Below, piece after piece: positions 18,764-54,766 of a stretch of DNA of 64,000 bases. The position numbers and the translations under genes were made by a program. Position 1 is the first letter of the stretch; each line of letters starts with the position of its first letter. This stretch comes from Candidatus Woykebacteria bacterium RBG_13_40_15 (lineage in GTDB: Bacteria > Patescibacteriota > Microgenomatia > Woykebacterales > RBG-16-39-9b). The stretch covers positions 6,485 to 70,484 of the forward strand of contig MHCP01000015.1 of NCBI GenBank assembly GCA_001816655.1, given 5' to 3'. The notes below the pieces were generated by a model. That model did not search any database. It was given only the letters and a program-made list of their open reading frames with translations, and was not told the DNA's origin.

Positions 18764-18822
18764 CAAAATGGGGTCACTTCTCGCATTACTGCTTAAAGCA
18801 ACCCCATGTGTGATCACCTCCT

Positions 18823-21681
18823 TTACACTGCTGGCACTACAAGTGGGCTACCGTTTCCCCTAGGCACCCACTTCCTGCCATAATACTGCCCTTGCTCCAA
18901 GAGATAGGGAATTGTTCCCCCAACTATCTTTATCTCCTCGTTGGTCCATCTACCCTCAATGTCTAAGAGAACCTTCTCGGGACTCGTTCTCCCAAAATTG
19001 AGAGCTGCGGCTCCAAGCAACGGCTGGACAACTTCCTTCGCAACCGTCTGTATATCCTCCCACTCTTCAAACGTACCGTCCATGATCTTCCCTGCGATCA
19101 AACCCTGTGCCTTTTCCGGGCTCTGCTGGTAGTAGTTGAAGCCAAGGACCTTGGCCAAGCGGCTCTGAGCTAGGAAACTAGCCGATTGTTTAGGGAGCCT
19201 GATCACATGGAATCTCTTTGCTTGCTGTACCTTTGGATCGTGGATGCTTAGCCCCCGACGATATGCCCCTTCCAGCAAACGAAGCGCCATTGGAAGGCTG
19301 GCTTGCTTAAGCTCGCCATCATTGCCATTGGCCAACTCTATCAGCACAGCATCTGCGAAATCGTCGGCTACCTCAAGCCTTTTTGCAGCGAAGTTGCGCC
19401 AGTCCGGCCGACCATCTCCCTCAAGCCATGGCTGTCCTGCCAAATCCGCTCGGTATCCTTTACGGAGATCGGTTTCCCCCATGTCCTCATTTTCTTGGGC
19501 TTGCCTATCTATCAGGGCTTGCTTAGGAGCGAGTGGCTGTCTATTCCACATGAGTAACAGCATATTCCCAAATTGGGTGTAGCTGGGTCTAGCTGGGTCG
19601 TTGCTGGTCCAGCGACTAAACCGGACATTTTCTTCCGACCCAAAAGCCATGGGCGAGCGGAATCTCTGGTTCGTTTTATCCACGAGGGACATGAATACAA
19701 TCCCATCGTAGGTTTCCCACAGCCATTTGGGATCGTCCGTAGCCAGGTCTATTTTCTGGAGGGCCCAGAGGAACTCGTTGGGGTAGTTCATTACCTTCGC
19801 CAAATCTCTGTCCACCCCAGTTGCACCTCGGGGTGGAAGAACCCCCCAAATCGCTTGGCCGCAATAGCTCCAGATCATCTCCAAACCCGACTGAAAAGCC
19901 AAGTGAGCATCAAAGATCTCCCTAGCTAGGGAGTTTCCGTGGTCTCTTTCCTCAAAGGGATCCTTCATCATCCAGTAGGGACCGAGGATCCTTTCTCTCA
20001 CAGCCTGGATCGTCTCTTCCTCCGTCGGCGCTCTGTTGTCGTGGCCTTCTTTCCACCCCGCTAACCAGCGCGGACCGAGATACTCTAACCGCTCCTCTTG
20101 GCTCCTTCCGCTCACCTCTTCGGCGAGCTTGTAGAGCCGCATGAAACGATCGTTGTACTTCCACTCAAGTGGCGGCCGTGGCCCTCCAGCGTCATTGTCG
20201 CACGCTTGGGCGTTCACTGCTTCAGTAAGGCCTCCCTGACCACGCTTTGTACGCATGCTCCTCGCCATCTGCCAGGCTCTAATGATTCGGACGATGTCGC
20301 GCAAGACCTCGAAAGGCGCGGCGAACATCTTCATTGCCTCCCAATTCAACCCATCCGGGGTAAGGACCGGAGGCTCAATCAGGTGGAAGTAAAAGCCAAC
20401 CAGTGTCCATAGCTTGTCGGCCTTTTGCTCCCAGGTAACGGCTTGTATGTTCCAGACTGATTGCCAGATCTTCCTGAGCTGGTTTAGCTCCGTTAGGTTC
20501 ATCCAGTCGTATTCCTCATTGAGAAGATTCTCGAAGCCGCCCTGAACAGGAAGACAACTTAGGGCAGCCCTGACCGGATCAACCTCTAGGGCATCGAAGT
20601 CTGCTTCTGGGCCCGCCCCACTCTCTTGGAACTTTGTTCGTTCCTGTTCCTTTATCTTCTGCAGGCCTTCGTAGACCTGCCGAGCAGTAACAAACTCCAA
20701 TGCCACCTCAAGGTGAACGCGGTAGTAAAGCGCCCCCTCGGTTTCCAGCCAGCCGGGTACGCAAAGCTTGCCCCCTATTTTCATAAATGGCAGGGGCGGT
20801 GGAACATCCTCAGTCTCTGGATCGTACCGCTCTTTGATTAGAGAGGGGTCCCGAAGAGCTCTGAGGAGGTCGAAATCCAAAGAGTCCCCTGTGACTGGAT
20901 TGGCGTAGCCTCTGTAGCAGTAGGGGACATACGTCTTCTCCTTAGGCCGCCTTTCCACGCTAGCAGGGTCTCTGCGGTAGTCCTCGATTAGCTTCCACCT
21001 CCTCTCCAACTCCTCGTTGTACCGCTTTTCCAACCGGGCCTTTGGCACCATGTGGAACGGTTGGCGAGGGCTTTGGGAGTAGGCCTCTTCTATAATCGGG
21101 GTCAGGACCCAGTAGCGAACTCGCTGAATTTCACCTAGGAATTTGTAGGTTTCGTCTCCGAGAGAGAACGTGTGGAATTTTCTATATGCCTTTCTCTCCC
21201 TACTGCCCTCCTCTCCACTCTGGAGACGTTTTTCGTAGTGCTCCCCCCATCTCTCCTGATGGGTAGCGAAGGCCCCCCTCATTCCCTCTGGCAAGTGGCC
21301 CAAGAACATCGGCTCGCCCTTCACCATACGGTAGATGTTGCCTTTATCATCCAGAAGGACGTGGGCTTTTTTTCCCTTCTTAGGCGACCACTCAAGGTCC
21401 AGCCTTTTGTACAAACTTTCCAGATCCTGTGGCTTCGTGGTCCTCCACATCCATACCGGCACGTAGATTCGGATCCCCTTCTGTGAGAAGAACTCCAGTA
21501 GCCTGTCGATTATCCTTGTCGTTATGGCTTGAAGTAGTGCCCACTCAGAGCTGAAGGGAAACCTTCTGCCTCCCGCATAGTCTTCGTCCTGCAACCAAGT
21601 CCTGTCGGTTACCCGAACACCGCTTGTGGCAGCTTGTTCCTCTTCCTCTTCTTGAAAGTCCGTGTCGTTCATCATTGTCAT
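18823..21681 (-). CDS. large hypothetical protein (952 aa) in GC-rich island 1
   Basis: Long uninterrupted ORF. Local GC is markedly higher than flanks. No recognisable catalytic motif by eye. Acidic N-terminus, Trp-rich. Confidence 0.6.
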   Translation of the reverse strand: MTMMNDTDFQEEEEEQAATSGVRVTDRTWLQDEDYAGGRRFPFSSEWALLQAITTRIIDRLLEFFSQKGIRIYVPVWMWRTTKPQDLESLYKRLDLEWSPKKGKKAHVLLDDKGNIYRMVKGEPMFLGHLPEGMRGAFATHQERWGEHYEKRLQSGEEGSRERKAYRKFHTFSLGDETYKFLGEIQRVRYWVLTPIIEEAYSQSPRQPFHMVPKARLEKRYNEELERRWKLIEDYRRDPASVERRPKEKTYVPYCYRGYANPVTGDSLDFDLLRALRDPSLIKERYDPETEDVPPPLPFMKIGGKLCVPGWLETEGALYYRVHLEVALEFVTARQVYEGLQKIKEQERTKFQESGAGPEADFDALEVDPVRAALSCLPVQGGFENLLNEEYDWMNLTELNQLRKIWQSVWNIQAVTWEQKADKLWTLVGFYFHLIEPPVLTPDGLNWEAMKMFAAPFEVLRDIVRIIRAWQMARSMRTKRGQGGLTEAVNAQACDNDAGGPRPPLEWKYNDRFMRLYKLAEEVSGRSQEERLEYLGPRWLAGWKEGHDNRAPTEEETIQAVRERILGPYWMMKDPFEERDHGNSLAREIFDAHLAFQSGLEMIWSYCGQAIWGVLPPRGATGVDRDLAKVMNYPNEFLWALQKIDLATDDPKWLWETYDGIVFMSLVDKTNQRFRSPMAFGSEENVRFSRWTSNDPARPSYTQFGNMLLLMWNRQPLAPKQALIDRQAQENEDMGETDLRKGYRADLAGQPWLEGDGRPDWRNFAAKRLEVADDFADAVLIELANGNDGELKQASLPMALRLLEGAYRRGLSIHDPKVQQAKRFHVIRLPKQSASFLAQSRLAKVLGFNYYQQSPEKAQGLIAGKIMDGTFEEWEDIQTVAKEVVQPLLGAAALNFGRTSPEKVLLDIEGRWTNEEIKIVGGTIPYLLEQGQYYGRKWVPRGNGSPLVVPAV

Positions 21682-21972
21682 TTGTCGTTCTCCTTGGTGT
21701 GTTTTAATGCCGCTTTCGCAGCTTCTTTAAGTGGTTGTATTCAAACTCCGCTTGACGCGATGCGTCTGCGGAAGGGAATTGAATCAAACCCACTTGGTGA
21801 AGCGCAAAAAGCAGCTCACACCAAGGGGTGTCTACCCGCCGGCCGGCGGGCAAGCATCCCTTGGTGTTTTTCACCAAGAAGCTATACCGAATTAAGAATT
21901 TATAATTCAGAATGCAGAATTTCTCCTTCTTTATTTTCGAATATTTACTTTTTAAAGTTCTACAAAAAGATA

Positions 21973-22003
21973 AGCGGGCTCTAGGTATTTCCCAGAGCCC
22001 GCT
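21973..22003. repeat. boundary hairpin AGCGGGCTCT-loop-AGAGCCCGCT (island 1)
   Basis: 10-bp stem with 11-nt loop. Near-identical to the hairpin at 47434-47464. Confidence 0.6.
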
Positions 22004-22364
22004 TCACCACCAGCCACCGGCTGATGTCTCGCCATTACGGCGAGATCTGCTCTGGGCTTTTCTCAATGATTAATTTGAAGCTAAATTTCATTTTAAATTT
22101 CCTCGTGCTTATTCTAGCACAAATCGTTGAGTTTGTCAAACCTATAGTCACTCGACTACATCTCGCGCCTGTTTCTCTGCGAGATATAATACGCAAGTAT
22201 TACCTGCCCGACGCTAAAGCTTTGGCAGGCGGGCATTCTGCGTATTGTTTCCTTGCAGGATATAATAATCCGTCTCCTTTACTTTATTTTTGATCTATTT
22301 TGAACTGGTTGCTTTTACCAACCAAATAGTCAATAATAGTGGGCGAAGAAGAGGGACGATATTA

Positions 22365-22395
22365 CAGTAAGCAGAAAGCAGTAAGCAGTAAGCGG
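22365..22395. repeat. CAGTAAGC/CAGAAAGC short tandem repeat block
   Basis: cagtaagcagaaagcagtaagcagtaagcgg. Related motif at 22828-22870 and at 44501-44523. Confidence 0.6.
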
Positions 22396-22415
22396 GTTGG
22401 AACTAAAAATCAACT

Positions 22416-22847
22416 TTGCTAGCTGCTACAAGTTTTCTACAAAGTGCCTCGGCAGAGAGCAGAAAGCAGATGCCCAACAGTTCGAGTTTCGAAAAAATAA
22501 AGGCTTGGCAAAAAGGTCATCTATTAGCCTTGGAGGTTTACAAAGTTACCAAGTCGTTTCCGCGGGAAGAGGCTTTCGGTCTAACATCTCAGTTACAACG
22601 TGCTGCAATATCCGTCCCCACCAACATAGCAGAAGGTTACGCAAGACAAAATAATAAGGTCTTTGGAACATTTTTAGATACGGCTTACGCGTCGCTAGTT
22701 GAAATTAAGTATTTATTAAAGTTTTCTGCAGAGGTTGGTTATATTTCGAAACAAAATTTTATTAAATTAGAATCTTTAGCTGACGAGGTCGGCAAGGTTC
22801 TTTGGAAATTTATGAAGGAGGTAAAATCAGTAAGCAGTAATCGGTAA
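22416..22847 (+). CDS. four-helix-bundle protein (23S rRNA intervening-sequence protein / Avd-like family)
   Basis: 143 aa. Pattern KIKAWQKGHLLALEVYKVTKSFPREEAFGLTSQLQRAAISVPTNIAEGYAR is characteristic of the PF05635-type four-helix-bundle family, which includes DGR Avd. Confidence 0.6.
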   Translation: MLAATSFLQSASAESRKQMPNSSSFEKIKAWQKGHLLALEVYKVTKSFPREEAFGLTSQLQRAAISVPTNIAEGYARQNNKVFGTFLDTAYASLVEIKYLLKFSAEVGYISKQNFIKLESLADEVGKVLWKFMKEVKSVSSNR

Positions 22848-22934
22848 GCCTAATTGGAAAGCAGAAAGCAAACGCTAATTGTTATCTGCTAACTAACGGG
22901 TGCTAACTGTTCAACTGCTAACTGCTAACTGACT
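22828..22934. repeat. short tandem repeats: CAGTAAGC-like followed by four copies of GCTAACT
   Basis: cagtaagcagtaatcggtaagcc...gaaagcagaaagc, then gctaact at 22888, 22902, 22917 and 22924. GCTAACT approximates the reverse complement of AGTAAGC. Confidence 0.6.
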
Positions 22935-23459
22935 GTGCAGCAGCATCCTGTACCGCAAAACATAACTGGCTTTGAGTTTAAACTGATTGGCTTTCTGACT
23001 ATAAAGCAGTTTGCTTATTTGGCGGGGGCTTCTATCCTCTCTTTTGCTTGCTATTTTATATTGCCCGGCCTTTTGCGTTGGATGATTATCTTACCAGTTA
23101 TGGCGGCGGGAAGTGCTTTTGCCTTTCTGTCCCTAAACGGTATGTCTTTCGACAAATGGATCATTGCCTTTATCCGATTGATAAGCAACCCCCAGATAAG
23201 AGTTTGGAGAAAAACACCTAAGGTTATTAGCTTTCTAGCCCCAGAATTTTCCTACTATTTACGCCGAGGAGTAGAAGCGGCACAACCCACTCAAGCACCA
23301 AGCAAAGATCGTCTTAAACTCTTTGTTAGCCAACTTCAGGAACAAAAGCCAGAGGATCAGTTGGACGTTTTTGAAAAAAGCCGGCTCTCAAAGTTAAATT
23401 TTGCTGCCCGAGAGACTCCCCAAACACCTATACCGGACCAGGAAGGAGTGGCCCCTTAG
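22935..23459 (+). CDS. small two-TM membrane protein, possible VirB3-like T4SS component
   Basis: 174 aa with two adjacent TM helices near the N-terminus. Its position in the T4SS locus fits VirB3 or a VirB3-like protein. Confidence 0.3.
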   Translation: MQQHPVPQNITGFEFKLIGFLTIKQFAYLAGASILSFACYFILPGLLRWMIILPVMAAGSAFAFLSLNGMSFDKWIIAFIRLISNPQIRVWRKTPKVISFLAPEFSYYLRRGVEAAQPTQAPSKDRLKLFVSQLQEQKPEDQLDVFEKSRLSKLNFAARETPQTPIPDQEGVAP

Positions 23460-25262: not shown

Positions 25263-25982
25263 ATGGCTAAACCAAAAAGAATACCACTAACTCAAGAGCA
25301 TTTGGATATCGAAGATATTCGAGATGATGTTGTTATTCTAAAAAGTGGGACCGCGGCTGCGGTTCTCCAAACAACTGCTATTAATTTTGATTTACTGAGC
25401 GAACAGGAGCAAGATTCAGTCATTTTTGCATTTGCGGGCTTACTAAATTCTATAACCTACCCCATTCAAGTGTTGATACGCAGTAAAAGAGTTGATATTT
25501 CCAATTACATATTAAGGATCGCCGAGGCAAAGAGGAAAACCCATAATCAAAGCTTGGTCTCCCAAATTGAAAAATACGAAAACTTTATTAAGGATCTCGT
25601 ATCAAAAAACCAGGTTCTTGACAAGAGATTTTATGTAATAATCCCTTATTTTAATATTGAGCTTTCTCAATTAACTGGGGGTCTGGGATCAATTTTCCAC
25701 CCAAAGGCCGTCAAAGAGCATAAATGGGCCACTTTGGAAAAAGCGAAGGTAAATTTGGAACCAAAAGTGGAGCACCTCATAAAGCAATTTTCGCGGCTTG
25801 GGGTAAAAACTATCCGTTTAACAACCGAGGAGCTAGTTGAACTTTATTATGATCTTTACAATGCTGATATCGCGCGCGAGGAGAAAGCGGCGCTTGGAAC
25901 CAAAGAATATACGACACCAATAGTTGAGCCAAAAATTACACCCGTAGCAACTCCGCCAGCAGAGGAAGGGGTCAAACAGTAA
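25263..25982 (+). CDS. VirB4 N-terminal-domain-like protein (possible split VirB4, part 1)
   Basis: VVILKSGTAAAVLQTTAINFDLLSEQEQDSVIFAFAGLLNSITYPIQVLIRSKRVDI matches the N-terminal pattern of Gram-positive VirB4/TrsE-like ATPases. Stop lies 3 nt before the next ATG. Confidence 0.45.
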   Translation: MAKPKRIPLTQEHLDIEDIRDDVVILKSGTAAAVLQTTAINFDLLSEQEQDSVIFAFAGLLNSITYPIQVLIRSKRVDISNYILRIAEAKRKTHNQSLVSQIEKYENFIKDLVSKNQVLDKRFYVIIPYFNIELSQLTGGLGSIFHPKAVKEHKWATLEKAKVNLEPKVEHLIKQFSRLGVKTIRLTTEELVELYYDLYNADIAREEKAALGTKEYTTPIVEPKITPVATPPAEEGVKQ

Positions 25983-25985
25983 TCC

Positions 25986-27800
25986 ATGACATTTAATATT
26001 TTTGGAAAAAAACAAAAAACACAACCAGAAAATCCCAATCTACAAAGTACCCGAGACAAAACCGCGAGATTCCTTGGTACTGGAATGGTTGATGTAAAGG
26101 ATGTTATTGCACCAGCAGCAATACAGGTCGAGTTTGATCATGTAAAAATCGGCGAAACATATTTTAGAACCCTTTTAGTTGCTGGTTACCCCAGATTTAT
26201 AGGAGCTAACTGGCTTGCCCCTTTAATCAACTTTGATCACACTCTTGATCTTTCCTTTTTCTACTACCCTGTAGAAACCAGGGGTATTTTAAGCGATCTG
26301 AGACGTAAAATAGCAGAAATGGAAGCAACAATCGAATCTGATTTGGAATCTGGTAGGGTCCTTGATCCAGCCATTAGGGCCTCCCTTGAAGATGCCCAAG
26401 AGTTGCAGGAGCAGCTGGCTACTGGAATTGAAAGGTTTTTTCAGTTTTCCTTTTATATCAAAATACCCGCAAATAGTTTGGAGGAATTAAATAAAATAAC
26501 GCGGGAGGTGGAAGCTGTTGCTGGATCCTTGTTGATAATAACTAAACACGCAAGCTTGCAACAAGAGCAGGGATTTCAAAATACCTTACCTTACTTTTCC
26601 GACAAATTATTCTCAATTAGAAACATGGATACAATAAGTCTTGCCACAACCTTCCCCTTTACAAGTTCCGAATTAACGGCAGACGAGGGTGTCCTCTACG
26701 GAATAAATGAGCATAATGGATCCCTAGTTATTTTTGACCGTTTCTCGCTAGAAAATGCTAACAGTGTTGTTTTTGCAAAATCGGGAGCAGGAAAAAGCTA
26801 TCTAGTTAAGTTGGAGGCTTTGCGCTCTTTAATGTTTGGTACCGAAATAATCATCATCGACCCTGAAGATGAGTACAAAGATCTAGCGGTGACCATCGGC
26901 GGTGAATATATAAAATTCGCCCAAAATCAGCCGGCAAAAATTAACCCATTTGACCTTTCCGGAATCTATGAAGAAGGGGAGAATGAGCTTGGATTAAAGA
27001 TCTTATCCCTTCACGCTCTTTTTCGAATAATGTTAGGGGAACTTACTCCTACCGAAGATGCCATTCTTGATCGGGCCTTAATAACTACTTATAAACTCAA
27101 GGGGGTTACTCCAGATCCTGCAACACAAACTAAAGAACCTCCAATTTTGGCCGATTTATACAATGTGCTGCAGAATATGGCGGAGTCTTCAGCAAGGGAA
27201 ATGGCGCAAAGGCTGGAAAAATTCATAAAAGGCTCGCTCTCTGGTATTTTTGACCAGCCTAGTACAGTTAACTTGTCCAACTCATTCACAGTTTTCTCCA
27301 TTAGAGAGCTCGAAGACGAGCTGCGTCCTATTGCTATGTTCATTGTCCTTGATCATATCTGGACTAAGATTAAGAGGGATAGAAAAAAGAGACTTCTTGT
27401 AGTGGACGAGGCTTGGTATTTAATGAAATACCAAGATTCTGCTTCATTTATGTATTCTATGGCAAAGAGGGCTCGTAAATACAACTTGGGGGTAACAACT
27501 ATCACGCAGGATGTTGAGGATTTTTTGAACAGTGACTACGGTAAAGCAATTGTTACGAACTCTTCCATCCAAGTTTTGCTTAAGCAGAGCCCGGCTGCAA
27601 TTGATAAAATTGTTGAAGTATTTTATTTATCGGCTGGTGAAAAAAATCTTTTACTTTCGTCAGATATTGGTGAGGGGCTGTTCTTTGTAGGCCCCAATCA
27701 TGTAGCAATTAGGATCCAGGCGTCGCCTGATGAACACATGCTTTTAACACGCGGGCAGCAAACTCCCAAACCCACGGAAGAGCCGCCTAAGGCTCAATAA
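25986..27800 (+). CDS. VirB4/TraE/CagE-family conjugal-transfer ATPase (C-terminal ATPase part)
   Basis: Walker A VVFAKSGAGKSYLVK and Walker B RLLVVDEAWYLM (DEAW is typical of VirB4). 604 aa. Confidence 0.75.
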   Translation: MTFNIFGKKQKTQPENPNLQSTRDKTARFLGTGMVDVKDVIAPAAIQVEFDHVKIGETYFRTLLVAGYPRFIGANWLAPLINFDHTLDLSFFYYPVETRGILSDLRRKIAEMEATIESDLESGRVLDPAIRASLEDAQELQEQLATGIERFFQFSFYIKIPANSLEELNKITREVEAVAGSLLIITKHASLQQEQGFQNTLPYFSDKLFSIRNMDTISLATTFPFTSSELTADEGVLYGINEHNGSLVIFDRFSLENANSVVFAKSGAGKSYLVKLEALRSLMFGTEIIIIDPEDEYKDLAVTIGGEYIKFAQNQPAKINPFDLSGIYEEGENELGLKILSLHALFRIMLGELTPTEDAILDRALITTYKLKGVTPDPATQTKEPPILADLYNVLQNMAESSAREMAQRLEKFIKGSLSGIFDQPSTVNLSNSFTVFSIRELEDELRPIAMFIVLDHIWTKIKRDRKKRLLVVDEAWYLMKYQDSASFMYSMAKRARKYNLGVTTITQDVEDFLNSDYGKAIVTNSSIQVLLKQSPAAIDKIVEVFYLSAGEKNLLLSSDIGEGLFFVGPNHVAIRIQASPDEHMLLTRGQQTPKPTEEPPKAQ

Positions 27801-31799: not shown

Positions 31800-31801
31800 T
31801 T

Positions 31802-42446: not shown

Positions 42447-42541
42447 TCAGACTTGACAAATAAACGGCTACCTTTTAAAATCTTGTCTTGCCCAAGTGCT
42501 CTGTTATCTGTACCACCTTTAATAAAAGCTAATAAAGAATT

Positions 42542-44492
<1,951 letters not shown>

Positions 44493-44500
44493 GCAGATAT

Positions 44501-44523
44501 CAGAAAGCAGACAGCAGTAAGCG
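44501..44523. repeat. CAGAAAGCAG...CAGTAAGCG motif at left edge of GC-rich island 2
   Basis: cagaaagcagacagcagtaagcg shares a 10-mer and a 9-mer with the repeat at 22365-22395. Confidence 0.5.
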
Positions 44524-44632
44524 TTAGAAGTAGGCCTTAGGAACCTCAAAGCCTGTAGTTCTCCACTCGTTTCGGATAATTTTGATCTTCCCATAAATTT
44601 TTAACTTGAGAAAAAATGTGAAAACTAGGACA

Positions 44633-44666
44633 GTCAGGGGAACCTCGGTTTGGAAGTTCCCCTGAC
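44633..44666. terminator. strong hairpin downstream of minus-strand 295-aa ORF (11-bp stem GTCAGGGGAAC/GTTCCCCTGAC)
   Basis: Perfect 11-bp stem, 12-nt loop, and T-rich trailer on the minus strand. Confidence 0.5.
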
Positions 44667-44677
44667 GAGTGCGTGAA

Positions 44678-45565
44678 CTAGCTTTTCTTGACTAGCTTGC
44701 CGTGCGGTCTCCAGGAGGAAGGCCGGCCTTGTGTTATGACCTCAACCATTCTTGTTGGCCACTCTGTCCCGAATTGTAGGAGACGGCCGAATCCGAGACG
44801 TAGGGCCGTAGGTTTGTCTGGAAGCAACAACGGAAGCTCCTCGGGGTTTATTTTCTCACCCTCCCTGTAGAAAGCTGCATGGTGCTTTACTGGGCAGACT
44901 AGCAGTACTCTCTTGAGGAAGAAGAATGCGACGAAATGGTCCTCTCTATTGAGGCAGCGGACCAAATAAGTCGCCTCTGGTGCTAAGCCCCAAGGTATGG
45001 TTAGTCGCTTAGGATCCGTGGCCGAGTGCTGTTGCCAGGTAAAGACACCCCAGTGCTTCGTATATACCCTCCCCTCACTGTCGATTTTCACCACTTCCAT
45101 CAGGTCTGGTACCGGAGCGCGGGTGAGCGGGCCGGTCCCAACTAGCGGCGGCTGGCGGATTGGGGGCAGATCGTCCAAATGGAGACAGCCGATAAAGGGC
45201 CGCTTCTCTGGCCAGGTTTCCATTCCTTCCACTGCCCCAAAAGGTAGTACCTCTCTTCCAAACAGGATTTCCGAACCCTGCTTGAAAGTTCCAAACGTCG
45301 CTCCGTTGTCAGGATTGGGAAAGCCGAATCTACCAGAGGGTGAAACTCGGCAAAACCGGGTTGGAAGGCGCGCTCTTAGACATCTCTGATAGTAAAGACG
45401 TTCCATCCATGTCGGGGCTTGACCAAGACTCTGAACAAGTTCCCAGACATCCGACTCCCCCAGTAGCCATAGCCTATAGCGAAGCTCAAGATCTTCATCG
45501 GGCATGATCAGTAGGTGTGCGCCACTTGATGTAACCAGGTGAAACGTTAATTTGGCGGGCGGCAT
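44678..45565 (-). CDS. hypothetical protein (295 aa), GC-rich island 2, candidate retron accessory/effector
   Basis: Long ORF with island-like GC content. No recognisable motif. Confidence 0.5.
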   Translation of the reverse strand: MPPAKLTFHLVTSSGAHLLIMPDEDLELRYRLWLLGESDVWELVQSLGQAPTWMERLYYQRCLRARLPTRFCRVSPSGRFGFPNPDNGATFGTFKQGSEILFGREVLPFGAVEGMETWPEKRPFIGCLHLDDLPPIRQPPLVGTGPLTRAPVPDLMEVVKIDSEGRVYTKHWGVFTWQQHSATDPKRLTIPWGLAPEATYLVRCLNREDHFVAFFFLKRVLLVCPVKHHAAFYREGEKINPEELPLLLPDKPTALRLGFGRLLQFGTEWPTRMVEVITQGRPSSWRPHGKLVKKS

Positions 45566-45737
45566 GACGTTCCCTCCTTGGATTTGAACTCTCCTTAACT
45601 ACAATCTCCACTCCAACTGTTAAATATATTAAAACTTTTTTTGTAGCTGTCAAGCGGCTTTTAGCTAAAAAGTACCTTATTAATAAGCGAAGTTGAAAGT
45701 TGCAGATAAAACCATATTTATCTAAAATGTTATTGCT

Positions 45738-46223
45738 ATGGGGAAATTTGAGGCTTTGACACCAGAACAAGTAAGACAATTTGAAAAAGAAGCAGTTAAA
45801 AGATTTAACCACGAGGAAAACGATCATCCACATGTTGAACCCCAGGTGGGATCACTTGAGCTGGCCCGCTTTAAGGCCGTTTTTCCTTTCCAACTTTTTC
45901 CAGACGAGTTGATAGTCGAGGAAAAAAGAGTGATTTGGATTCATCGTTTTGGCCCACGAATGTGCGAGGTAATTACTCTTTTACCCTCCGATATAAATAG
46001 AGTCGAAGCTTCCACCGGCCCTCTCTTTGGCCATCTTCATGTCTCTATACCAAGGCACGATATTGAGATTCTTATCGACCGTCTTAAACGAAACGACGCT
46101 CTCTTTGCCCGTGATTTAATTGATGGTCTAGCTACAGCAGCCAGACAAAACCTAGCGATAGAAGGCGAAACTGCGCAAGAAAAAGTAGATTTTCTTCTCC
46201 GTCTTTCCCACGTGAGTGTCTAA
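45738..46223 (+). CDS. hypothetical protein (161 aa) immediately upstream of retron-like ncRNA, candidate effector
   Basis: Same strand as the RT, ending about 40 nt before the a1 repeat. No recognisable motif. Confidence 0.5.
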   Translation: MGKFEALTPEQVRQFEKEAVKRFNHEENDHPHVEPQVGSLELARFKAVFPFQLFPDELIVEEKRVIWIHRFGPRMCEVITLLPSDINRVEASTGPLFGHLHVSIPRHDIEILIDRLKRNDALFARDLIDGLATAARQNLAIEGETAQEKVDFLLRLSHVSV

Positions 46224-46262
46224 ACCTTGACCGAAAAAGCCCTAAATGATATAAAGACACTA

Positions 46263-46388
46263 ACTTGGGCTAGAGCTTAAGTGGCCCCAAATTGGCCCGC
46301 ACCGTCAGATGGCTGACTGGTGTAAACGGGAAGGCTGGCGCCTCGTTCCCGGCGCGCGTTTACCAGCCCGAACTTGAGTAGCCCAAGT
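46263..46388 (+). ncRNA. retron-like msr/msd non-coding RNA bracketed by a1/a2 inverted repeats
   Basis: Perfect 10-bp inverted repeat ACTTGGGCTA (46263-46272) and TAGCCCAAGT (46379-46388). The enclosed region has a GGCC hairpin and a long imperfect stem GACTGGTGTAAACGGGAAGGCTGGCGCC / GGCGCGCGTTTACCAGCC. It lies directly upstream of a retron-type RT. Confidence 0.55.
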
Positions 46389-47432
46389 GAGGATGGGGCT
46401 GCCGTACTAGCTAATAGCGCGGCAGCCCCTAGAAAATGGAGAGCGATAATGAGATCAATAGAGCCAGTTATATTCTCCAGCGGAGAAGGACGATTCCCAG
46501 CGGAGGGTTTGGAGGTTGACTATAATAGGTTCGGATTCAACCCCCTAGTCTACCTCGGGTTCCTAATAGGTATACCAACAAGGTGGATCGATTACGTAAT
46601 AAAAATCGGTGCCGACAACTTCTACACCGAAGTTAGGATACCGAAAAAGGGTGGTGGGGTGAGGGTTCTTCAAGTACCCCTAGATCCCTTAATGGGTATT
46701 CAGAGAAGGATTCTTCGCAAGGTTCTAAGCCAACTAGAGCCCAAGAGCTCCTGCCACGGCTTTGTTACTGGTAGATCGATAATTACCAATGCCCAAGTCC
46801 ATGTCGGATCAACGCACATGCTTGTCCTCGATCTGGAAAGTGCATTTGATCAAGGCCTGTCTAGTCGAATCTTTAGAGAGCTCTGGGGAGAGAGGGTTGG
46901 CGAGAGGAGGCTTGGATTTCTGGTCGCCTCCTTGATAACACAGCTCTGTACAGTATACAGCGGGGATATTGGAGAACGGTACGGGTTTCGGCACCTTCCT
47001 CAGGGAGCACCAACCTCACCAGCGCTCTTTAATCTTGCTTGCCGTCCGTTGGATGGAAGACTGGACCACTTCGTATGGAGAATCGGTGGGGTTTACACAC
47101 GCTATGCGGACAACCTTGCTTTCTCCGTTCCTAGACAACTGACCCCCAAGGAGGAGCATATAATTCGGAAGATAGTAGATGGGAGTGGTTTCAGAGTTAA
47201 CGATGCCAAAACGAGGTTGATGCGCCAAAGCGGGCACTCGATCCTGCGTCTTCCAGGGGTCGCTATCAACAACGGAAGGATAATACTTCCCAAGAGGAAG
47301 AGAAAGCAGCTGCGGGCAGCAATTTACCTAGCCGCCTTGCATGGAGAGACAGATAGGCTTCGGGGACTAATAGGCTTTGTGGAGCAGGTGTACGGCCCCG
47401 AAGTCCCAAGACAAATAATCGGTAGTCACTAG
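46374..47432 (+). CDS. retron-type reverse transcriptase (motif C reads YADN)
   Basis: RT motifs present: IPKKGGGVRVLQVP (motifs 1-2); HGFVTGRSIITNAQVH carrying the retron-specific VTG and NAxxH; LDLESAFD (motif A); LPQGAPTSPALFNLA (motif B); YTRYADNLAF (motif C with the second Asp replaced by Asn). The likely true start is ATG at 46449, which has a GGAGAG ribosome-binding site. Confidence 0.8.
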   Translation: MSSPSEDGAAVLANSAAAPRKWRAIMRSIEPVIFSSGEGRFPAEGLEVDYNRFGFNPLVYLGFLIGIPTRWIDYVIKIGADNFYTEVRIPKKGGGVRVLQVPLDPLMGIQRRILRKVLSQLEPKSSCHGFVTGRSIITNAQVHVGSTHMLVLDLESAFDQGLSSRIFRELWGERVGERRLGFLVASLITQLCTVYSGDIGERYGFRHLPQGAPTSPALFNLACRPLDGRLDHFVWRIGGVYTRYADNLAFSVPRQLTPKEEHIIRKIVDGSGFRVNDAKTRLMRQSGHSILRLPGVAINNGRIILPKRKRKQLRAAIYLAALHGETDRLRGLIGFVEQVYGPEVPRQIIGSH

Positions 47433-47433
47433 T

Positions 47434-47464
47434 AGCGGGCTCGCTTCCACAAACCGAGCCCGCT
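47434..47464. repeat. boundary hairpin AGCGGGCTCG-loop-CGAGCCCGCT (island 2, just after RT stop)
   Basis: 10-bp stem with 11-nt loop. Same stem sequence family as 21973-22003. Confidence 0.6.
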
Positions 47465-47605
47465 CACCGTAGTTAATATCCCATAATAATTATATATTCA
47501 AATTTATCTCTGACTTTGAATCAAATTACCCTTGCTTACTTCTTTACAAAAATTAACGAAAACTTTCCACCAAGGCCCTTTTATTTGCTACAATTAAATT
47601 GATAT

Positions 47606-48880: not shown

Positions 48881-48942
48881 AAGCTGACTGTAAGCGTCGA
48901 AATTTGACAAACGAATTCTTGGTTGATAAGATTAATTTGTAG

Positions 48943-50550: not shown

Positions 50551-50608
50551 CAGCTCACAAATTTATTTTCCTAGCCCCAGATTTTTGTGTTACACTTAAG
50601 CTAGTTGA

Positions 50609-52099
50609 ATGAAACTTCTGCCACAAACATTATTTAAATCAATAAGGGTAAGGTTTGGTGTAATAATTGCAATTCTACTTCTTTTGGTTTTTGCGCTTTC
50701 TTCCGGTGTATTAATTATTCGTACTATAAATTCTCAAAATAAGACACTAATTACACAAGCCCGAGCTTTTTCTGAATTGTCCTCTCAACCAATTGGCGAT
50801 ACCTACTCACTTTATTACGGTTCGGGGTACCTAAAATTTACTGAGCTGATTGGGAAAATACTAGCTCTAAACCCTGATATAATCAAAGTACAAATAATTT
50901 CGGCAAACGGCGAAATTTTATTCGATTCCACCCAAGTTTCTGCCGATAAGCCTCCCGAAATCAAAAACGAGACAGACAAAGCGGTTATAGAGAAAGTTAA
51001 ATTAAACGAGGAAAGTGAAATACCAGCCCGTACGGAAGGGTCAAAACCAACCCAAATAATCCAACCCTATTTTGAGGACTTTGGCGCCCACCCTTTTTCA
51101 ATCCGTTACTTTATTTCTTATGATTCCGTAACCCAAAACATGGCAGCTATCATTACCACCTCAGCCCTGCTTTCGGCGGGGTTTCTTATTGGAGCAATTA
51201 TTCTAATTTTTATTGTCGTTGGTCGGACTATTATTAATCCGATGGAAACAGTAATCAAAGGGGCCCGTCTAATTCAGGGAGGCGATTTTTCGCACAACAT
51301 TGAGGTTAAAAATAAGGATGAAATTGGGGATTTAGCAGCGGCAGTAAACCAAATGGCGCAAACACTAAAGAGGAATATTGAATCGCTCCGAGAACTTGAT
51401 AAATTAAAGGACGAATTTGTCTTCTTAGCCTCTCATAATTTGAGAACGCCAATCACGGTTATAAAAGGCTACATTGGGCTACTTCAAAGAGATAAATCCC
51501 TCGGAGCAAAAGCTAAAAATAGGCTTGAAAAAATGCAAGCTAGTACAAAAGAGCTGCAACTACTCGCAGAATCATTGCTTAATTTAGCTTCCTTGGAGTA
51601 TAAAGATAAGGAACTTTTAATATCGGACGTAGATCTGGTGGAGCTAGTTGAAGAAATAACTGAAGAGTTTGGTAAAGAAGTGGGTGAAAAAAGAATTAGT
51701 TATATTTTGGAATTCCCATCAACCCCGCCTTCCAAAATAGCAGCCGACAAAGAGAGAATAAAGCAGGCGTTGGGAAATTTAATTGATAACGCAATTAAAT
51801 TTAATAGAGACGGGGGGAAGGTAATAATCAAACTAGAAGAAAAAGACAAAGATTTGATCCTCTCAATAGAAGATACTGGTGTTGGAATTTCTAAAGAAGA
51901 AAGTGAGCATATTTTTCAGAAGTTCCATCGAGCGACTAGCGTACTCAATTATAACTACGAGGGTATTGGGGTGGGACTCTATATAACTAGGTTGATTATA
52001 GAAGCCCATCAAGGTAAAGTCTGGTTCGAATCTAAACTTGGAGAGGGAACCACGTTTTTTGTTAAGCTACCAGTTAAGGCAGAACACTCAGTGGGTTAA
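50609..52099 (+). CDS. sensor histidine kinase (TM, HAMP, HisKA, HATPase_c)
   Basis: H-box ASHNLRTPITVIKGY, N-box LGNLIDNAIKFN, G-boxes DTGVGI and GIGVGL. Confidence 0.85.
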   Translation: MKLLPQTLFKSIRVRFGVIIAILLLLVFALSSGVLIIRTINSQNKTLITQARAFSELSSQPIGDTYSLYYGSGYLKFTELIGKILALNPDIIKVQIISANGEILFDSTQVSADKPPEIKNETDKAVIEKVKLNEESEIPARTEGSKPTQIIQPYFEDFGAHPFSIRYFISYDSVTQNMAAIITTSALLSAGFLIGAIILIFIVVGRTIINPMETVIKGARLIQGGDFSHNIEVKNKDEIGDLAAAVNQMAQTLKRNIESLRELDKLKDEFVFLASHNLRTPITVIKGYIGLLQRDKSLGAKAKNRLEKMQASTKELQLLAESLLNLASLEYKDKELLISDVDLVELVEEITEEFGKEVGEKRISYILEFPSTPPSKIAADKERIKQALGNLIDNAIKFNRDGGKVIIKLEEKDKDLILSIEDTGVGISKEESEHIFQKFHRATSVLNYNYEGIGVGLYITRLIIEAHQGKVWFESKLGEGTTFFVKLPVKAEHSVG

Positions 52100-52895
52100 T
52101 GGCAAGACCATCTTTATAGACCTCAAAGTGGAGGTGAGGACCAGTAGTCACACCTGTATCTCCAATAAAACCAATTATTGCATCGCTACCTACGCTTTCC
52201 CCGACCCGAACATTAATTCCAGAAAGATGTGCATACTTGGAGTCAAAACCATTTACACTTTGAATAATAATAGTATTGCCAAAACCATGGCTGTTCCAAC
52301 CAGCAAATACCACCTTTCCCTTGGCGAGAGGCTTTATGGGGGCACCGTGCGGGGCTGTGATATCTATACCCCGGTGGTAAGAAGAGAAGAGGCTCGTTAT
52401 ACCACCGCGAATGGGCCATGTAAAAATAGGGTGTTCTTTAGCAACTACTTGCGTAGATATAGTAAGCTTTTCTATTTTAGGCGTAACTGCAAGCTGGTTT
52501 CCAGCCACAACAGTGTCTGGCCTTTGATTAAAGCCAACAAGTAAAAATATTAACCCAAGTACTACGATTGTCCTAAAGGCAAATGTAGGAACAGCTTTTC
52601 TAAATGTTTGCCAAAGGAAAAGTACCTCGGTTAAAACACTCAAAGCGTCAATAATAATAGCTTCCGGGGTAAACCAGACGATATTGCCACGCAAGGCACC
52701 AGTTCCAGCAGCTGCGTGGGAGAATTGTACATTTCGCAGGGGCAGAGCGCGCCTTGTACCAAAAGGCACATAGGTGGTTCTGTTTAACATAATCCCCGCC
52801 AGCAACTGCGTAGCTGTGGGCGGGGTAGAAACAAAAAATCTCCCATATTTTTGGGAGACGCGGCGTATTCTAACAGAAAGGACAAGTAGTGTCAA
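52074..52895 (-). CDS. M23 family metallopeptidase
   Basis: HRGIDITAPHGAPI (HxxxD) and GDTGVTTGPHLHFEV (HxH). Confidence 0.8.
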   Translation of the reverse strand: MTLLVLSVRIRRVSQKYGRFFVSTPPTATQLLAGIMLNRTTYVPFGTRRALPLRNVQFSHAAAGTGALRGNIVWFTPEAIIIDALSVLTEVLFLWQTFRKAVPTFAFRTIVVLGLIFLLVGFNQRPDTVVAGNQLAVTPKIEKLTISTQVVAKEHPIFTWPIRGGITSLFSSYHRGIDITAPHGAPIKPLAKGKVVFAGWNSHGFGNTIIIQSVNGFDSKYAHLSGINVRVGESVGSDAIIGFIGDTGVTTGPHLHFEVYKDGLAINPLSVLP

Positions 52896-52956
52896 GTTAT
52901 AGGGGTGCGTAATTAGAGTTTTTGTAGGTTATATGATATACTTTGGCCTCGTATAA

Positions 52957-53030
52957 GGCGTGGTGGTCGAGTGGTTAGACACGGGTCTGCAAAACCTGTC
53001 ACAGCGGTTCGAATCCGCTCCACGCCTCCA
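52957..53030 (+). tRNA. tRNA-Cys (anticodon GCA)
   Basis: GGCGTGG acceptor. Anticodon stem-loop CGGGT-CTGCAAA-ACCTG. T-arm GCGGTTCGAATCCGC. 3' end CCACGCC-T-CCA. Confidence 0.85.
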
Positions 53031-53050
53031 AAGCCCGGGCTAATAAATAT

Positions 53051-53079
53051 CCTCTAGTAATTGACATAGTGTTATTTTT
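53051..53079 (+). promoter_or_regulatory. consensus sigma70-type promoter (TTGACA-17 nt-TATAAT)
   Basis: TTGACA at 53051-53056 and TATAAT at 53074-53079 with an exact 17-nt spacer. Drives a roughly 300-nt leader before the first island 3 ORF. Confidence 0.6.
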
Positions 53080-53390
53080 CTGGTATAATACAACTTGTTC
53101 TTTGAAATATTAGAAAAGTTACAGGTCTCGAAAGGCATCTAGTAACTGGTAATAATTGTATTTGTAACTGTCACTGTTAAAAACCTTGAAGTAAATGCAC
53201 ATTAAAACCAGTTACCAGGTGCCTTTATTGTGCCGCGGAGCTTTATGCGAAGTGGCATTGGTACCAGTACCTTGAAAATTACTCCTTACAAACTCTCCTT
53301 CACTTGGGCTCGCTCATATTGTTCTTAAATTTATTTTGAGAACAGTTAGAGCGGCTTGCTCAAGCATTACAATACGAAGGAGGTTGTGAC

Positions 53391-53831
53391 GTGACAGCCC
53401 GTCTAGTCAAAGGCGTGTACGGTACGTATCTGGCCCCTTTTGAAGGCCCCTTCGGCCTTCGCTATGGGCAACGCAGGAAGTGGTACATCCACAACAATGC
53501 TGGGTGGTACAATTCTGAAGGCGAGAAGTTAGGATGGGGCGATCTCAACATTGAGGATATTCAACGAATCGCTTCGGAGCTCCTGCCCGGCGAGGTGTTC
53601 ATCATCCTCAGTGAGCAGGACACTTCCTGGCAGCACGACCGAATGGATGCTCCCGGGATCGAGTACTGTGCTTTCAAATGCCACTGTATTATCCTTCCAG
53701 GGAAGGTATACAAGGTGGTGGGGCATGAATACGAAACCGCGGACGAGGACGTGGAGGATCAAGGGCTCGCCGTAACCCTAGTTTCTCGCTCTCGTGCAAG
53801 GGAGCTTCTCAGCCAGCCTACCAACGCCTAG
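53391..53831 (+). CDS. hypothetical protein (146 aa), GC-rich island 3
   Basis: GTG start preceded by GAAGGAGG. GC-rich codon usage unlike the host. No recognisable motif. Confidence 0.5.
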   Translation: MTARLVKGVYGTYLAPFEGPFGLRYGQRRKWYIHNNAGWYNSEGEKLGWGDLNIEDIQRIASELLPGEVFIILSEQDTSWQHDRMDAPGIEYCAFKCHCIILPGKVYKVVGHEYETADEDVEDQGLAVTLVSRSRARELLSQPTNA

Positions 53832-53945
53832 ACAACAGCAAGGAGTAAGCGATGTGTAGTCCAAATCAAGCAGCGATGTTTGAAGAGGCACAAGTACCAT
53901 CGTAAACTTCTTAAGGAAATCATGGTTCGATAAACTCACCACAAG

Positions 53946-54401
53946 TTGGTTTTCTTAGGAGAGATCATGAACAACGTGAGTTCGTGGTCTGTAGTCAAGG
54001 AGGGAGAGATGAGTACCTTAGAAGCGCAGTTAATGGACGCTACCTTCGATTGGCGTCACCGCATACTACACCACCGTGATGGAACGTGCGGCGCCTCGGC
54101 GCGTGACCTGGAGACCGGCTCGCTTTATTGCCCTGCCGAGGCGTCCAGGGCACCGCCTGATCGGATCATCAAGGAGGCGGGCAGGGAGTACACAGAGCCA
54201 CTCCCTTGCCTCACCAGAATCCTCGTTCGGCTCGCTCGTTTAGATGCCGAAGCGAGGATATTTGCCACCGGCTTCCTCAGCTTCTGCGAGAATGCCGGAG
54301 TTCCCAAGGTCGCAGCGGAGGCTATCTGGGAAGCCGCAGTTCAGCAGACCGAGGATTATCTTGCTAGGTCAAAGAGCCTCGACGAGCTTAACGCCGAGTA
54401 A
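53946..54401 (+). CDS. hypothetical protein, GC-rich island 3 (likely start ATG 53967)
   Basis: AGGAG RBS at 53956-53960 and ATG at 53967. No recognisable motif. Confidence 0.5.
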   Translation: MVFLGEIMNNVSSWSVVKEGEMSTLEAQLMDATFDWRHRILHHRDGTCGASARDLETGSLYCPAEASRAPPDRIIKEAGREYTEPLPCLTRILVRLARLDAEARIFATGFLSFCENAGVPKVAAEAIWEAAVQQTEDYLARSKSLDELNAE

Positions 54402-54658
54402 GATCGTCCGTCTTCCTAGCGATTACGGACACGGCTACGGTTTGGCGGTTTCGGCAAAGGCATTGCCTTGTCTCTTCCGCCATGTCGTGACGAACGGCAA
54501 AAACAAAAAGTTGGTCAGGCAAAACCGTTCTACCTGGCCGTAAAAACAACGGTGCGAAGGCCTCTTGAGGCATGCGTGGGAAGGAGCAGACATATGCAAT
54601 GTTTGTTTCCTTCCCTTCCCTGAGCAAATCAAGAAATTGGTTTTCTTAGGAGGAGACG

Positions 54659-54684
54659 CGACCTGAAAGGGTCGTTTTTCTTTT
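54659..54684 (+). terminator. putative Rho-independent terminator (CGACC-TGAAAG-GGTCG then TTTTTCTTTT)
   Basis: Short GC stem followed by a T-run. Lies within a roughly 360-nt non-coding stretch. Confidence 0.35.
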
Positions 54685-54766
54685 CCGAGGAGTTTGCAAG
54701 GCCCGTCCTTGCAGCTTCGACACAACCATTTCCCATTTTAATTCTTTGTGTTAAAATTACTCCGCC

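Follow-up and report, generated by a model that had tools for sequence, protein, structure and literature searches.

Compositional islands are usually read as recent imports, and the window analysed here, 64,000 nucleotides of contig MHCP01000015.1 of Candidatus Woykebacteria bacterium RBG_13_40_15 (positions 6,485-70,484), raises the question of whether its GC-rich segments should be read that way. An initial annotation had described three islands of foreign composition and had interpreted them as three insertions from a common higher-GC donor, possibly the host organism of an episymbiont. Island 1 is built around one large gene, here called gene X, within a type IV secretion system (T4SS) cluster; island 2 carries a two-gene module and a retron-like reverse transcriptase (RT); and island 3 lies behind a gene for cysteine transfer RNA (tRNA-Cys). 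The largest of them turned out to be a positional constant of the T4SS cluster of Patescibacteria, so composition alone can mislead. The reading preferred here, with somewhat more confidence than doubt, is that the GC-rich segments are occupied variable-gene slots that were refilled from a GC-richer exchangeable pool, and not three equivalent private insertions.

The segments themselves are real. The window has a mean GC content of 0.424 (median 0.417 over 300-nucleotide windows), and four segments hold a GC content of at least 0.48, namely 18601-21900 (0.53), 44501-45600 (0.52), 46101-47500 (about 0.50) and 53301-54700 (0.527). GC at third codon positions (GC3) averages 0.364 in the 54 native open reading frames (ORFs) of the window (standard deviation 0.037, maximum 0.435), whereas the five island genes reach 0.621 (gene X, 952 amino acids), 0.557 (a 295-amino-acid protein), 0.515 (the RT), 0.639 (146 amino acids) and 0.651 (151 amino acids), which is 4 to 8 standard deviations above the native mean. 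Codons ending in G and codons ending in C are both more frequent, in every amino-acid family; the share of AAG rises from 0.30 in native genes to 0.69 in island genes and that of TTC from 0.23 to 0.62. The proteins are shifted as well, with lysine falling from 8.1 to 4.5%, arginine rising from 3.9 to 8.3%, and isoleucine, asparagine and serine lower. This codon and amino-acid profile is that of genes resident in a replicon of about 55% GC; across the three slots, codon, amino-acid and dinucleotide usage is as in replicons of about 52-57% GC.

Dinucleotide distance from native DNA, normalised for GC, was outlying too. It amounted to 139 for X, compared with 48 +/- 14 (maximum 76) for native pieces of 2.85 kb, to 172 for island 3 and to 120-124 for the two halves of island 2, compared with about 65-76 +/- 21 for size-matched native pieces. 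Between islands, delta* ranged from 42 (X versus the 295-amino-acid gene) to 108, and between pairs of native pieces from 67 to 106. The islands are thus about as alike in signature as native pieces are, which fits a common kind of source. In this respect the initial annotation, which had named a GC-biased third codon position, was borne out: GC profile and codon usage of the islands both deviate beyond the native variance. Two further GC rises, at 16.3-18.7 kb and 23.3-24.5 kb (0.47-0.51), have native GC3 (0.36-0.42) and are not foreign, because they stem from the first and second codon positions of low-complexity protein segments rich in Gly/Ala or Pro/Thr/Ala. Amino-acid composition was rejected as the source of the island GC, the shift lying mainly in GC3, and high expression was rejected as the source of the GC3 excess, GroEL having a native GC3 (0.366).

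Signs of mobility that often mark genomic islands were not seen. No island ORF matched an integrase, transposase or other mobility family in Pfam, PHROGs or NCBIfam, and attachment-type repeats at the island edges were limited to 11-nucleotide ones at chance level, except for a 19-nucleotide repeat of island 3. The statement that the islands encode only proteins of unknown function plus the RT stood up, since X and the 295-, 161-, 146- and 151-amino-acid proteins had no convincing family match in Pfam, PADLOC, PHROGs or NCBIfam; the only sub-threshold match was that of 25 residues of the 161-amino-acid protein to a PHROG of unknown function. Nor did scans of IMG/VR reveal viral relatives of X or of the 295-, 146- and 151-amino-acid proteins.

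What the islands are is best seen from their places in related genomes. Relatives lacking an island at the same site would be expected of simple insertions. X was present in 8/8 genomes, slot 3 of the related locus L014 was occupied by other cargo, and the site of island 2 was not recovered in relatives, although the module with the 295- and 161-amino-acid proteins was found elsewhere in L016. The T4SS cluster around X comprises the following genes.

12870-14742: three T4SS_pilin genes (Pfam)
15496-16977: Peptidase_M23 gene (Pfam)
17081-18763: VirB6-like gene, recognised only by its position and its sequence rich in transmembrane segments, without a Pfam match
18823-21681, minus strand: gene X, core of island 1 (recognised as ORF and by GC3)
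22935-23459: PrgI (VirB3-like; Pfam)
25986-27800: VirB4/TraG-type ATPase (P-loop_TraG/AAA_10; Pfam)

The cluster also holds a 600-amino-acid protein and a TraC-like gene, and directly adjoins recF, dnaN and dnaA. By its VirB4, PrgI, hydrolase, pilin, DnaN and DnaA genes (Pfam) it belongs to the Patescibacteria T4SS clusters resembling mating-pair formation type FATA (MPF-FATA), and PMC12102498 reports the same chromosomal arrangement for Patescibacteria. X sits between the VirB6-like gene and PrgI and is transcribed divergently. At the locus of the homologous protein P0122 the order is VirB4, TraC-like gene, a large CarboxypepD_reg protein, PrgI, divergent X, VirB6-like gene, M23 and pilins. 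Loci with X were gathered via P0122, via VirB4 similarity and via P0124 and P0125, and a gene of 903-1017 amino acids occupies the same position in the same orientation in all eight genomes (the window, L002, L005, L006, L007, L010, L018 and L019). In each of the eight, no other gene of the locus reaches the GC3 of X (0.49-0.70; neighbour means 0.36-0.47; difference +0.11 to +0.25), and the probability that it would rank first in all of them by chance is about 8e-10.

The family is small and confined. A word-indexed search returned X only, and exhaustive HMMER searches found about nine distant relatives (28-31% identity, mostly 870-1017 amino acids) among 1.8 billion representative proteins. 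The six relatives with an examinable genomic context all lie in the same T4SS cluster of the candidate phyla radiation (CPR), and neither type of protein search found a homologue in a genome outside the CPR. A Pfam scan of 12 family members gave no match, PDB profile searches with the X family and with the family of the 295-amino-acid protein gave only noise (E >= 0.05), no transmembrane segment, pilin feature or domain was detected in X, and an AlphaFold2 model from eight sequences was poor (predicted local distance difference test score, pLDDT, 52; predicted template modelling score, pTM, 0.31). In the more distantly related L008 (33% GC, VirB4 67%), the VirB6-like gene and PrgI are separated not by an X-like gene but by two same-strand genes of 541 and 865 amino acids with native GC3, which may mark the limit of the phylogenetic range of the X slot.

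Although the position is constant, the content is not. Between the window and L002, identity is 74-76% for VirB4, 44% for PrgI, 34% for the VirB6-like protein and 25% for X; X evolves much faster than its flanking genes. L002 and L007 have the closest flanks (VirB4 94%, PrgI normalised score 0.76), yet their X proteins share only about 24% identity over about 200 amino acids; the best pair of X proteins, L005 and L007 (40% over the full length), has merely average flanks (VirB4 85%). At the DNA level, L002 and L007 cease to align at the 3' end of X and align again from its 5' leader. X of the window is itself a mosaic, in which the N-terminal 500-730 residues match P0122, P0123 and P0125, and P0124 and P0127 match residues 653-947 only. 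The dinucleotide distances of X genes from different genomes were 40-125 among one another and about 80-200 to native DNA, and native DNA of these genomes differed by 38-100; the X genes are closer in signature to one another than to native DNA. Targeting of X by a diversity-generating retroelement (DGR), a possibility prompted by a bAvd-like neighbouring gene, was rejected: no DGR RT and no template/variable repeat pair was found, the only RT of the window is retron-type and 25 kb away, no long near-repeat involves X, and repeat families are at most 41 nucleotides long.

In front of this variable gene lie the following features.

21775-21885, minus strand: structured 5' leader of X (alignment of six loci)
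21972-22139, minus strand: small transcription unit of about 140 nucleotides, 5' of the leader (promoter and terminator scan)
22365-22935, plus strand: 23S-rRNA-IVP/bAvd-like (IVP/bAvd-like) four-helix-bundle gene (22416-22847; Pfam PF05635, E = 1.6e-35) with flanking heptamer arrays

The leader lies 72-124 nucleotides 5' of the start codon of X, and its homologues are found in L002 (7790-7890), L005 (4790-4890), L006 (5785-5911) and L007 (5030-5135). It is predicted to fold into an outer stem, a long hairpin (CAYCAAGGG ... CCCTTGRTG) and a variable inner hairpin, and RNAalifold predicted 32 pairs on five genomes, 14 of them with compensatory changes. The leader is conserved though the coding sequence behind it diverges. 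Its four CTTGRTG/CAYCAAG half-sites co-vary in the window copy; alternative pairings seem feasible, and the leader could act as a regulatory switch. The small unit has a promoter (TTGACA-17-TAGAAT with TG, 22139-22111) and a terminator with a 14-bp stem (22004-21972), resembles L010, L018 and L005 in part (hairpin and upstream sequence), and is a candidate small RNA without an Rfam match. At permissive thresholds Rfam gave nothing credible on the X leader, the leader of slot 3 or the candidate retron RNA.

The two loci L010 (5289-6149, minus strand) and L018 (4966-5931, plus strand) carry a second GC3-rich ORF (0.686 and 0.503) between X and PrgI, and an N-terminal CPxCE zinc-ribbon motif is the only part these ORFs share (E = 3e-6). 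The window has 400 nucleotides of hairpin-rich non-coding DNA in the corresponding place (22004-22415).

A second slot with a conserved frame lies at the other end of the set, after the tRNA-Cys gene.

52957-53030, plus strand: tRNA-Cys (GCA), anchor of slot 3, at the same place in L014
53061-53226, plus strand: consensus promoter and leader hairpin of native composition (promoter scan; inverted repeat)
53227-53942, plus strand: cassette unit 1 with the 146-amino-acid ORFan (53391-53831)
53943-54652, plus strand: cassette unit 2 with the 151-amino-acid ORFan (53946-54401)
54616-54684, no strand assigned: native terminator region closing the slot, 85.5% identical to L014 (terminator at 54658-54675)
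54685-55226, plus strand: toxin-antitoxin module of HicB (54767-55015) and HicA (55012-55230; Pfam)

The promoter (TTGACA-17-TATAAT with TG, 53061-53089) matches the sigma-70 consensus at 12/12 positions and is followed by a leader hairpin (53131-53226) with arms of 26 nucleotides. The stretch 52699-53226 is about 80% identical to L014, the flanking genes of L014 share 65-85% protein identity with those of the window, and the alignment extends over the start of the M23 gene, tRNA-Cys, the promoter and the leader hairpin and is found again at the terminator region. Between these conserved flanks, the window holds 1.39 kb with the two ORFans and L014 holds 0.87 kb with an unrelated alpha/beta-hydrolase gene (GC3 0.593). 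Unit 2 is bracketed by 19-nucleotide direct repeats AA[G/A]TTGGTTTTCTTAGGAG at 53943-53961 and 54634-54652, which are identical at 18/19 positions; a rough estimate gives about 6e-4 such repeats expected by chance in 2.4 kb. The distal copy lies within resident sequence conserved with L014, and the repeat is as expected for a target-duplicating insertion, or for recombination at the site. The ORFan cassettes would have been inserted serially into an expression site after tRNA-Cys, one of them flanked by the duplication. HicAB, which has native composition, is absent from L014 and sits between the native terminator and a 377-amino-acid SH3/PEGA gene, is an extra insertion relative to L014 and stands outside the GC-rich set.

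Island 2 is of a different make. It had been described as one GC-rich segment, and its outer parts are indeed GC-rich, but it is bipartite, with the native 161-amino-acid ORF (GC3 0.352) and its equally native promoter in the middle. The left part is composed as follows.

44633-44666, minus strand: GGGGAAC hairpin past the 3' end of the 295-amino-acid gene (inverted repeat; the scan made no intrinsic-terminator call here)
44678-45565, minus strand: 295-amino-acid ORFan (recognised as ORF and by GC3)
45566-45737, no strand assigned: AT-rich divergent promoter region common to the genes of the 295- and 161-amino-acid proteins (similarity to L016), with a promoter-like site at 45653-45626 on the minus strand
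45738-46223, plus strand: 161-amino-acid ORF, partner of the 295-amino-acid gene

Among 5.8 billion proteins, the 295-amino-acid protein had a single homologue, P0132 (51% identity), and its AlphaFold2 model from two sequences was poor (pLDDT 36). In L016, where this homologue is encoded, the divergent promoter is 70% identical over 232 nucleotides (823-1050), a 44-amino-acid N-terminal remnant of the 161-amino-acid gene (68% identity) stands beside it, and a hairpin GGGGGAACCC...GGGTTCCCC lies 3' of the homologue, like the GGGGAAC hairpin in the window. In L016, which comes from another metagenome, the unit occupies another site, with an M23 gene on one side and a native, AT-rich gene on the other, and no RT accompanies it; the 295-amino-acid homologue is GC3-rich there too (0.573 versus 0.354 in the flanking gene). 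This recurrence at another locus without an RT indicates that the 295-amino-acid gene, the promoter and the 161-amino-acid gene form a portable module independent of the RT. Conversely, the RT clade of the right part occurs without this module in L001, L017, L100 and L101. By these comparisons, island 2 is composite, with at least two units.

The right part is a retron-like element.

46260-46391, plus strand: candidate retron-type non-coding RNA (msr-msd candidate; inverted repeat; fold z = -3.84)
46395-46429, plus strand: GGGGC...GCCCC hairpin between the RNA and the RT start, at the same place in L001, L017, L100 and L101
46449-47432, plus strand: retron-type RT of 327 amino acids from the ATG at 46449 (start as in NCBI record P0002)
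47434-47464, plus strand: hairpin 3' of the RT; its 9-bp stem is identical to that at 21973-22003 (exact-match scan)

The RT groups with retron RTs and not with RTs of group II introns, DGRs, Abi, UG or CRISPR-associated systems. It matched the retron RT models of PADLOC at 1e-54 to 1e-56, the best models being 'RT_other' and 'outgroup', and PDB profiles of retron RTs at 1e-46 to 1e-65 (Ec86 7.5e-65, Ec67 9e-58, with Ec83 and Ec78 also in this range), compared with 3e-22 for a group II intron RT, 3e-12 for Drt2 and 7e-6 for AbiK. The scores stayed below the NCBIfam cut-offs, with 150.7 bits (5e-44) against 235 for retron_St85_RT and 119 against 450 for Ec67. Directly 5' of the RT lies the non-coding RNA of about 130 nucleotides, in which a1 (46260-46272) pairs with a2 (46379-46391) at 12/13 positions, with internal hairpins in between, and a G (G46273), the candidate branching residue, stands immediately 3' of a1. 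Four related RTs (L001, L017, L100 and L101) are preceded by an RNA of this a1-CUA|G ... (G/A)AGUAG-a2 layout, with covarying stems of 7-14 bp. Judged by this anatomy, the RT would use G46273 of the RNA closed by a1 and a2 for priming and produce multicopy single-stranded DNA.

Two motifs depart from the known pattern. The RT carries NAxxH, but its catalytic box reads YADN in place of YADD, and the position aligned with motif 7, for which a 'VTG' signature has been described in retron RTs (PMC8632793), reads LRLPGV; more distant relatives have VTGV or VCGV. YADN is shared by P0003, P0004, P0006 and P0007, P0008 has FVDN, and the clade, in which the box reads YADN, FVDN or YCDN, also includes P0059. 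The 6-7 closest relatives share both the changed box and LPGV. The exchange of D for N at the second catalytic aspartate was found in 7/120 nearest homologues, the other box being YADD in 111/120, and viral retron RTs had xxDD in 80/80 and YADN/LPGV in none; a search of IMG/VR with the RT profile returned only ordinary YADD retron RTs of at most 35% identity. Conservation of the change within the clade argues against simple decay, and retron-like activity of the RT is uncertain owing to the YADN motif. The element is therefore described here as retron-like and, by its family scores, fits no defined retron type. Its neighbouring ORFs have no effector domain recognisable by Pfam or PADLOC, and variable, unrelated genes neighbour the RTs across the related loci. 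By analogy with other retrons, the element may act in defence against phages, and the ORFans beside it would be its candidate effectors.

In four low-GC hosts, the GC3 of the RT gene exceeds that of the host (0.515/0.36, 0.535/0.45, 0.524/0.30 and 0.707/0.40), and on the 52% GC contig L101 the gene matches the surrounding composition, which points, more than any other observation here, to a GC-richer home of the retron-like element at least. The nearest RTs include one from a Patescibacteria genome.

Composition, synteny, conserved frames, variable cargo, RT class and RNA architecture are observed, whereas how often and in which direction genes were exchanged, what the GC-richer pool is, and all protein functions suggested here are inferred. 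In two of the slots the regulatory frame is conserved, and the gene content would be exchanged. In slot 1, alleles of X would be swapped or recombined between lineages faster than they drift to host composition, and refilling of slots would be frequent enough to outrun amelioration. The GC-richer pool consists probably of other CPR genomes or their mobile elements. The GC-rich genes of the window and the Pfam-less GC3-rich genes of L001, L004, L010, L017, L018 and L100 are lineage-restricted, fast-evolving accessory genes in conserved neighbourhoods. Apart from the pair of 295-amino-acid proteins and the weak zinc-ribbon match of L010 and L018, the GC-rich ORFans of different genomes have no mutual homology.

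Several observations weigh against refilling from an external pool. For X and the 295-, 146- and 151-amino-acid proteins, scans of IMG/VR and of protein families turned up neither a donor replicon nor an integrase, a transposase, or a relative on a plasmid or phage. Other variable modules, HicAB and the IVP gene, are native in composition, so accessory genes are not necessarily GC-rich. An empty retron site was not recovered in L012, where homology starts only at 47558, no more than 226 nucleotides are available upstream, and synteny is broken there. The similarity of X is partly congruent with that of the VirB6-like protein (Spearman 0.51), which speaks for some vertical descent. The GC3 of X follows that of the host (r = 0.80, n = 8) at a steady offset of +0.11 to +0.25, and X is compositionally at home in 0/8 genomes, including L019 with 50% GC. 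Such tracking is not predicted by a fixed external pool and is better fitted by a process acting at the locus.

A locus-specific, GC-raising process is the most serious alternative, although a rather doubtful one. Here X, and perhaps other fast genes, would be inherited vertically and kept GC-rich by GC-biased gene conversion at a recombination hot spot, by targeted diversification or by selection on messenger RNA or DNA, and their composition would be upheld as a trait, as opposed to being left over from transfer. Besides the host tracking, the absence of a compositional home and the partial congruence with the flanks, the top rank of X for GC3 in 8/8 genomes is in line with it, and the conserved leader points to a locus that has long been in place. 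Usually, however, only a few percent of GC are attributed to biased gene conversion in bacteria, and the GC3 offset of +0.1 to +0.25 is far beyond that. In addition, amino-acid usage is shifted from lysine to arginine, as after a long stay in a GC-richer replicon; alleles were clearly swapped, for example between L002 and L007; and the same signature is found on mobile units, that is, the 295-amino-acid module at another site, the RT in unrelated contexts and the exchanged cargo of slot 3. It is also conceivable, though unlikely, that GC-richness is upheld in a special class of loci of these CPR bacteria, where X, mosaic and hypervariable behind its structured leader, would be a secreted or host-interaction factor of the epibiotic lifestyle and would be kept 0.1-0.25 GC3 above its host genome by locus-specific diversification or gene conversion, and/or that the YADN/LPGV RT is functionally distinct, possibly preferring another metal or substrate or acting without polymerisation.

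Three recent, independent insertions from one higher-GC donor, possibly the host of the episymbiont, as the initial annotation had proposed, seem improbable. A donor of about 55% GC would be in keeping with the composition, the islands are alike in dinucleotide signature (especially X and the 295-amino-acid gene), and beyond the YADN clade the closest RTs are labelled Myxococcota, Planctomycetes, Acidobacteria and similar. However, island 1 stands at the same place in all relatives examined, which contradicts the model, island 2 consists of at least two units with a native-GC gene between them, and island 3 of at least two units in a conserved slot. No homologue outside the CPR was found for X or the 295-amino-acid protein, and since X relatives with an examined context lie only in the CPR T4SS cluster, nothing supports the host organism as donor.

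Shared end hairpins and edge repeats had been taken as a further link between islands 1 and 2. The hairpin AGCGGGCTC-N13-GAGCCCGCT does occur in two exact copies (21973-22003 and 47434-47464; 0 expected), and AGCAG-type repeats (AGCAGWWAGCAG, AGCAGWA heptamer) occur nine times in the window, compared with 1.1 expected, but neither marks the end of an island. At island 1, the AGCGGGCTC/GAGCCCGCT copy terminates the small transcription unit 5' of the X leader. The AGCAGWWAGCAG repeats are confined to the flanks of the IVP/bAvd-like gene, in direct and inverted orientation, apart from one solitary copy.

44494-44523, plus strand: AGCAG-type repeat immediately 3' of the GroEL stop codon, marking where island 2 has its left edge

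The IVP/bAvd-like gene itself has native GC3 (0.368), and an orthologue (77% identity) adjoins PrgI in L018. The AGCAGWWAGCAG repeats are not island termini and may be insertion sites of small modules. AGCAG-type repeats also lie near X in L018 (6086-6097 and 6743-6754).

An artefact of assembly or binning, with chimeric joins to other organisms, is hardly credible: the contig is a short-read metagenome assembly and the composition jumps at gene boundaries, but the same gene order with a GC-rich X recurs in at least seven independent assemblies from different studies, which rules out chimerism, the frame of slot 3 is conserved in L014 on both sides of GC-rich cargo, the 295-amino-acid homologue of L016 stands between native-like genes, and the transitions fall into intergenic regions with intact promoters and terminators.

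Islands of atypical GC, variable sites linked to tRNA genes and retrons are known kinds of feature, and the slots resemble several known systems in part. Like other hypervariable loci that are replaced by recombination, such as those of polymorphic toxins or effectors and surface antigens, X combines conserved flanks and a conserved leader with a divergent, mosaic coding sequence, incongruent relationships and atypical composition. It differs in having no recognisable toxin, immunity or repeat domains and no downstream orphan cassettes, and in that the whole 2.9-kb gene varies and not the C-terminal tip. Within the Patescibacteria MPF-FATA-like T4SS, PMC12102498 reports highly divergent tandem VirB2 pilin genes, so that variability in such clusters is known; X lies inside this cluster but differs from such arrays in being without transmembrane or pilin features or a detectable domain, and in its persistent GC3 excess. 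Term searches of that paper found no conserved gene of about 950 amino acids at the position of X.

Island 3 resembles tRNA-linked genomic islands in its site 3' of tRNA-Cys, atypical composition, short direct repeat and content varying between relatives. In contrast to these, it lacks an integrase and any duplicate of the tRNA 3' end, and its cargo, in units of about 0.7 kb with one gene each, is placed between a resident promoter and leader and a resident terminator, so that it is more of an expression slot. With the cassette arrays of integrons it shares a fixed promoter that reads into short single-ORF units lacking promoters of their own, and a boundary motif that recurs between the units; no IntI integrase was found, attC-like imperfect palindromes are absent, it has only two units, and its repeat is a 19-nucleotide direct duplication of resident sequence.

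Compared with the retrons Ec86, Ec67 and Ec78/St85, the element of island 2 is alike in RT profile, NAxxH motif and upstream a1/a2 RNA with a G after a1, and, like retron effector loci, it has variable unrelated neighbour genes. It differs by YADN, LPGV, family scores below cut-off and the lack of a recognisable effector domain. A narrow literature check did not find three features described: a position-fixed yet hypervariable, GC3-rich T4SS gene with a structured leader (in term searches of PMC12102498), a promoter-leader-terminator slot after tRNA-Cys, and, with 'retron' and 'YADN' as search terms, a YADN/LPGV retron-like clade with conserved non-coding RNA.

PMC12102498, citing earlier work, describes the T4SS machinery as essential for epibiotic growth in Saccharibacteria. 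In each genome examined, no gene of the T4SS cluster is more variable or deviates more in composition than X, which makes X a concrete candidate for a host-interaction or effector protein. It is also a case in which atypical composition is apparently maintained and does not fade, an exception to amelioration. The two conserved architectures of frame plus variable cargo hint at a way in which very small CPR genomes reserve a few sites for accessory genes. A retron-like CPR clade with conserved non-coding RNA and a substituted catalytic aspartate bears on the biochemistry of retrons and on defence in the CPR, of which little is known.

Other single ORFs with a GC3 of 0.55-0.75 against a background of 0.27-0.48 were seen in further genomes that bear the YADN RT or the T4SS cluster.

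L001: 441-1082 and 10457-10894
L004: 15178-15528
L017: 3888-4385
L100: 4263-5213 and 11553-12161

They had no Pfam match where scanned and are unlike each other and unlike the ORFans of the window. Finally, three records that carry the Woykebacteria-like T4SS cluster, with VirB4 71-75% identical to that of the window, are deposited under other names, which looks like mis-binning or mislabelling.

L005, CAYHXX010000002.1: deposited as 'uncultured Gammaproteobacteria'
L007, CAYIWY010000009.1: deposited as 'uncultured Gammaproteobacteria'
L006, DATBWR010000016.1: deposited as 'Candidatus Nanoarchaeia archaeon'

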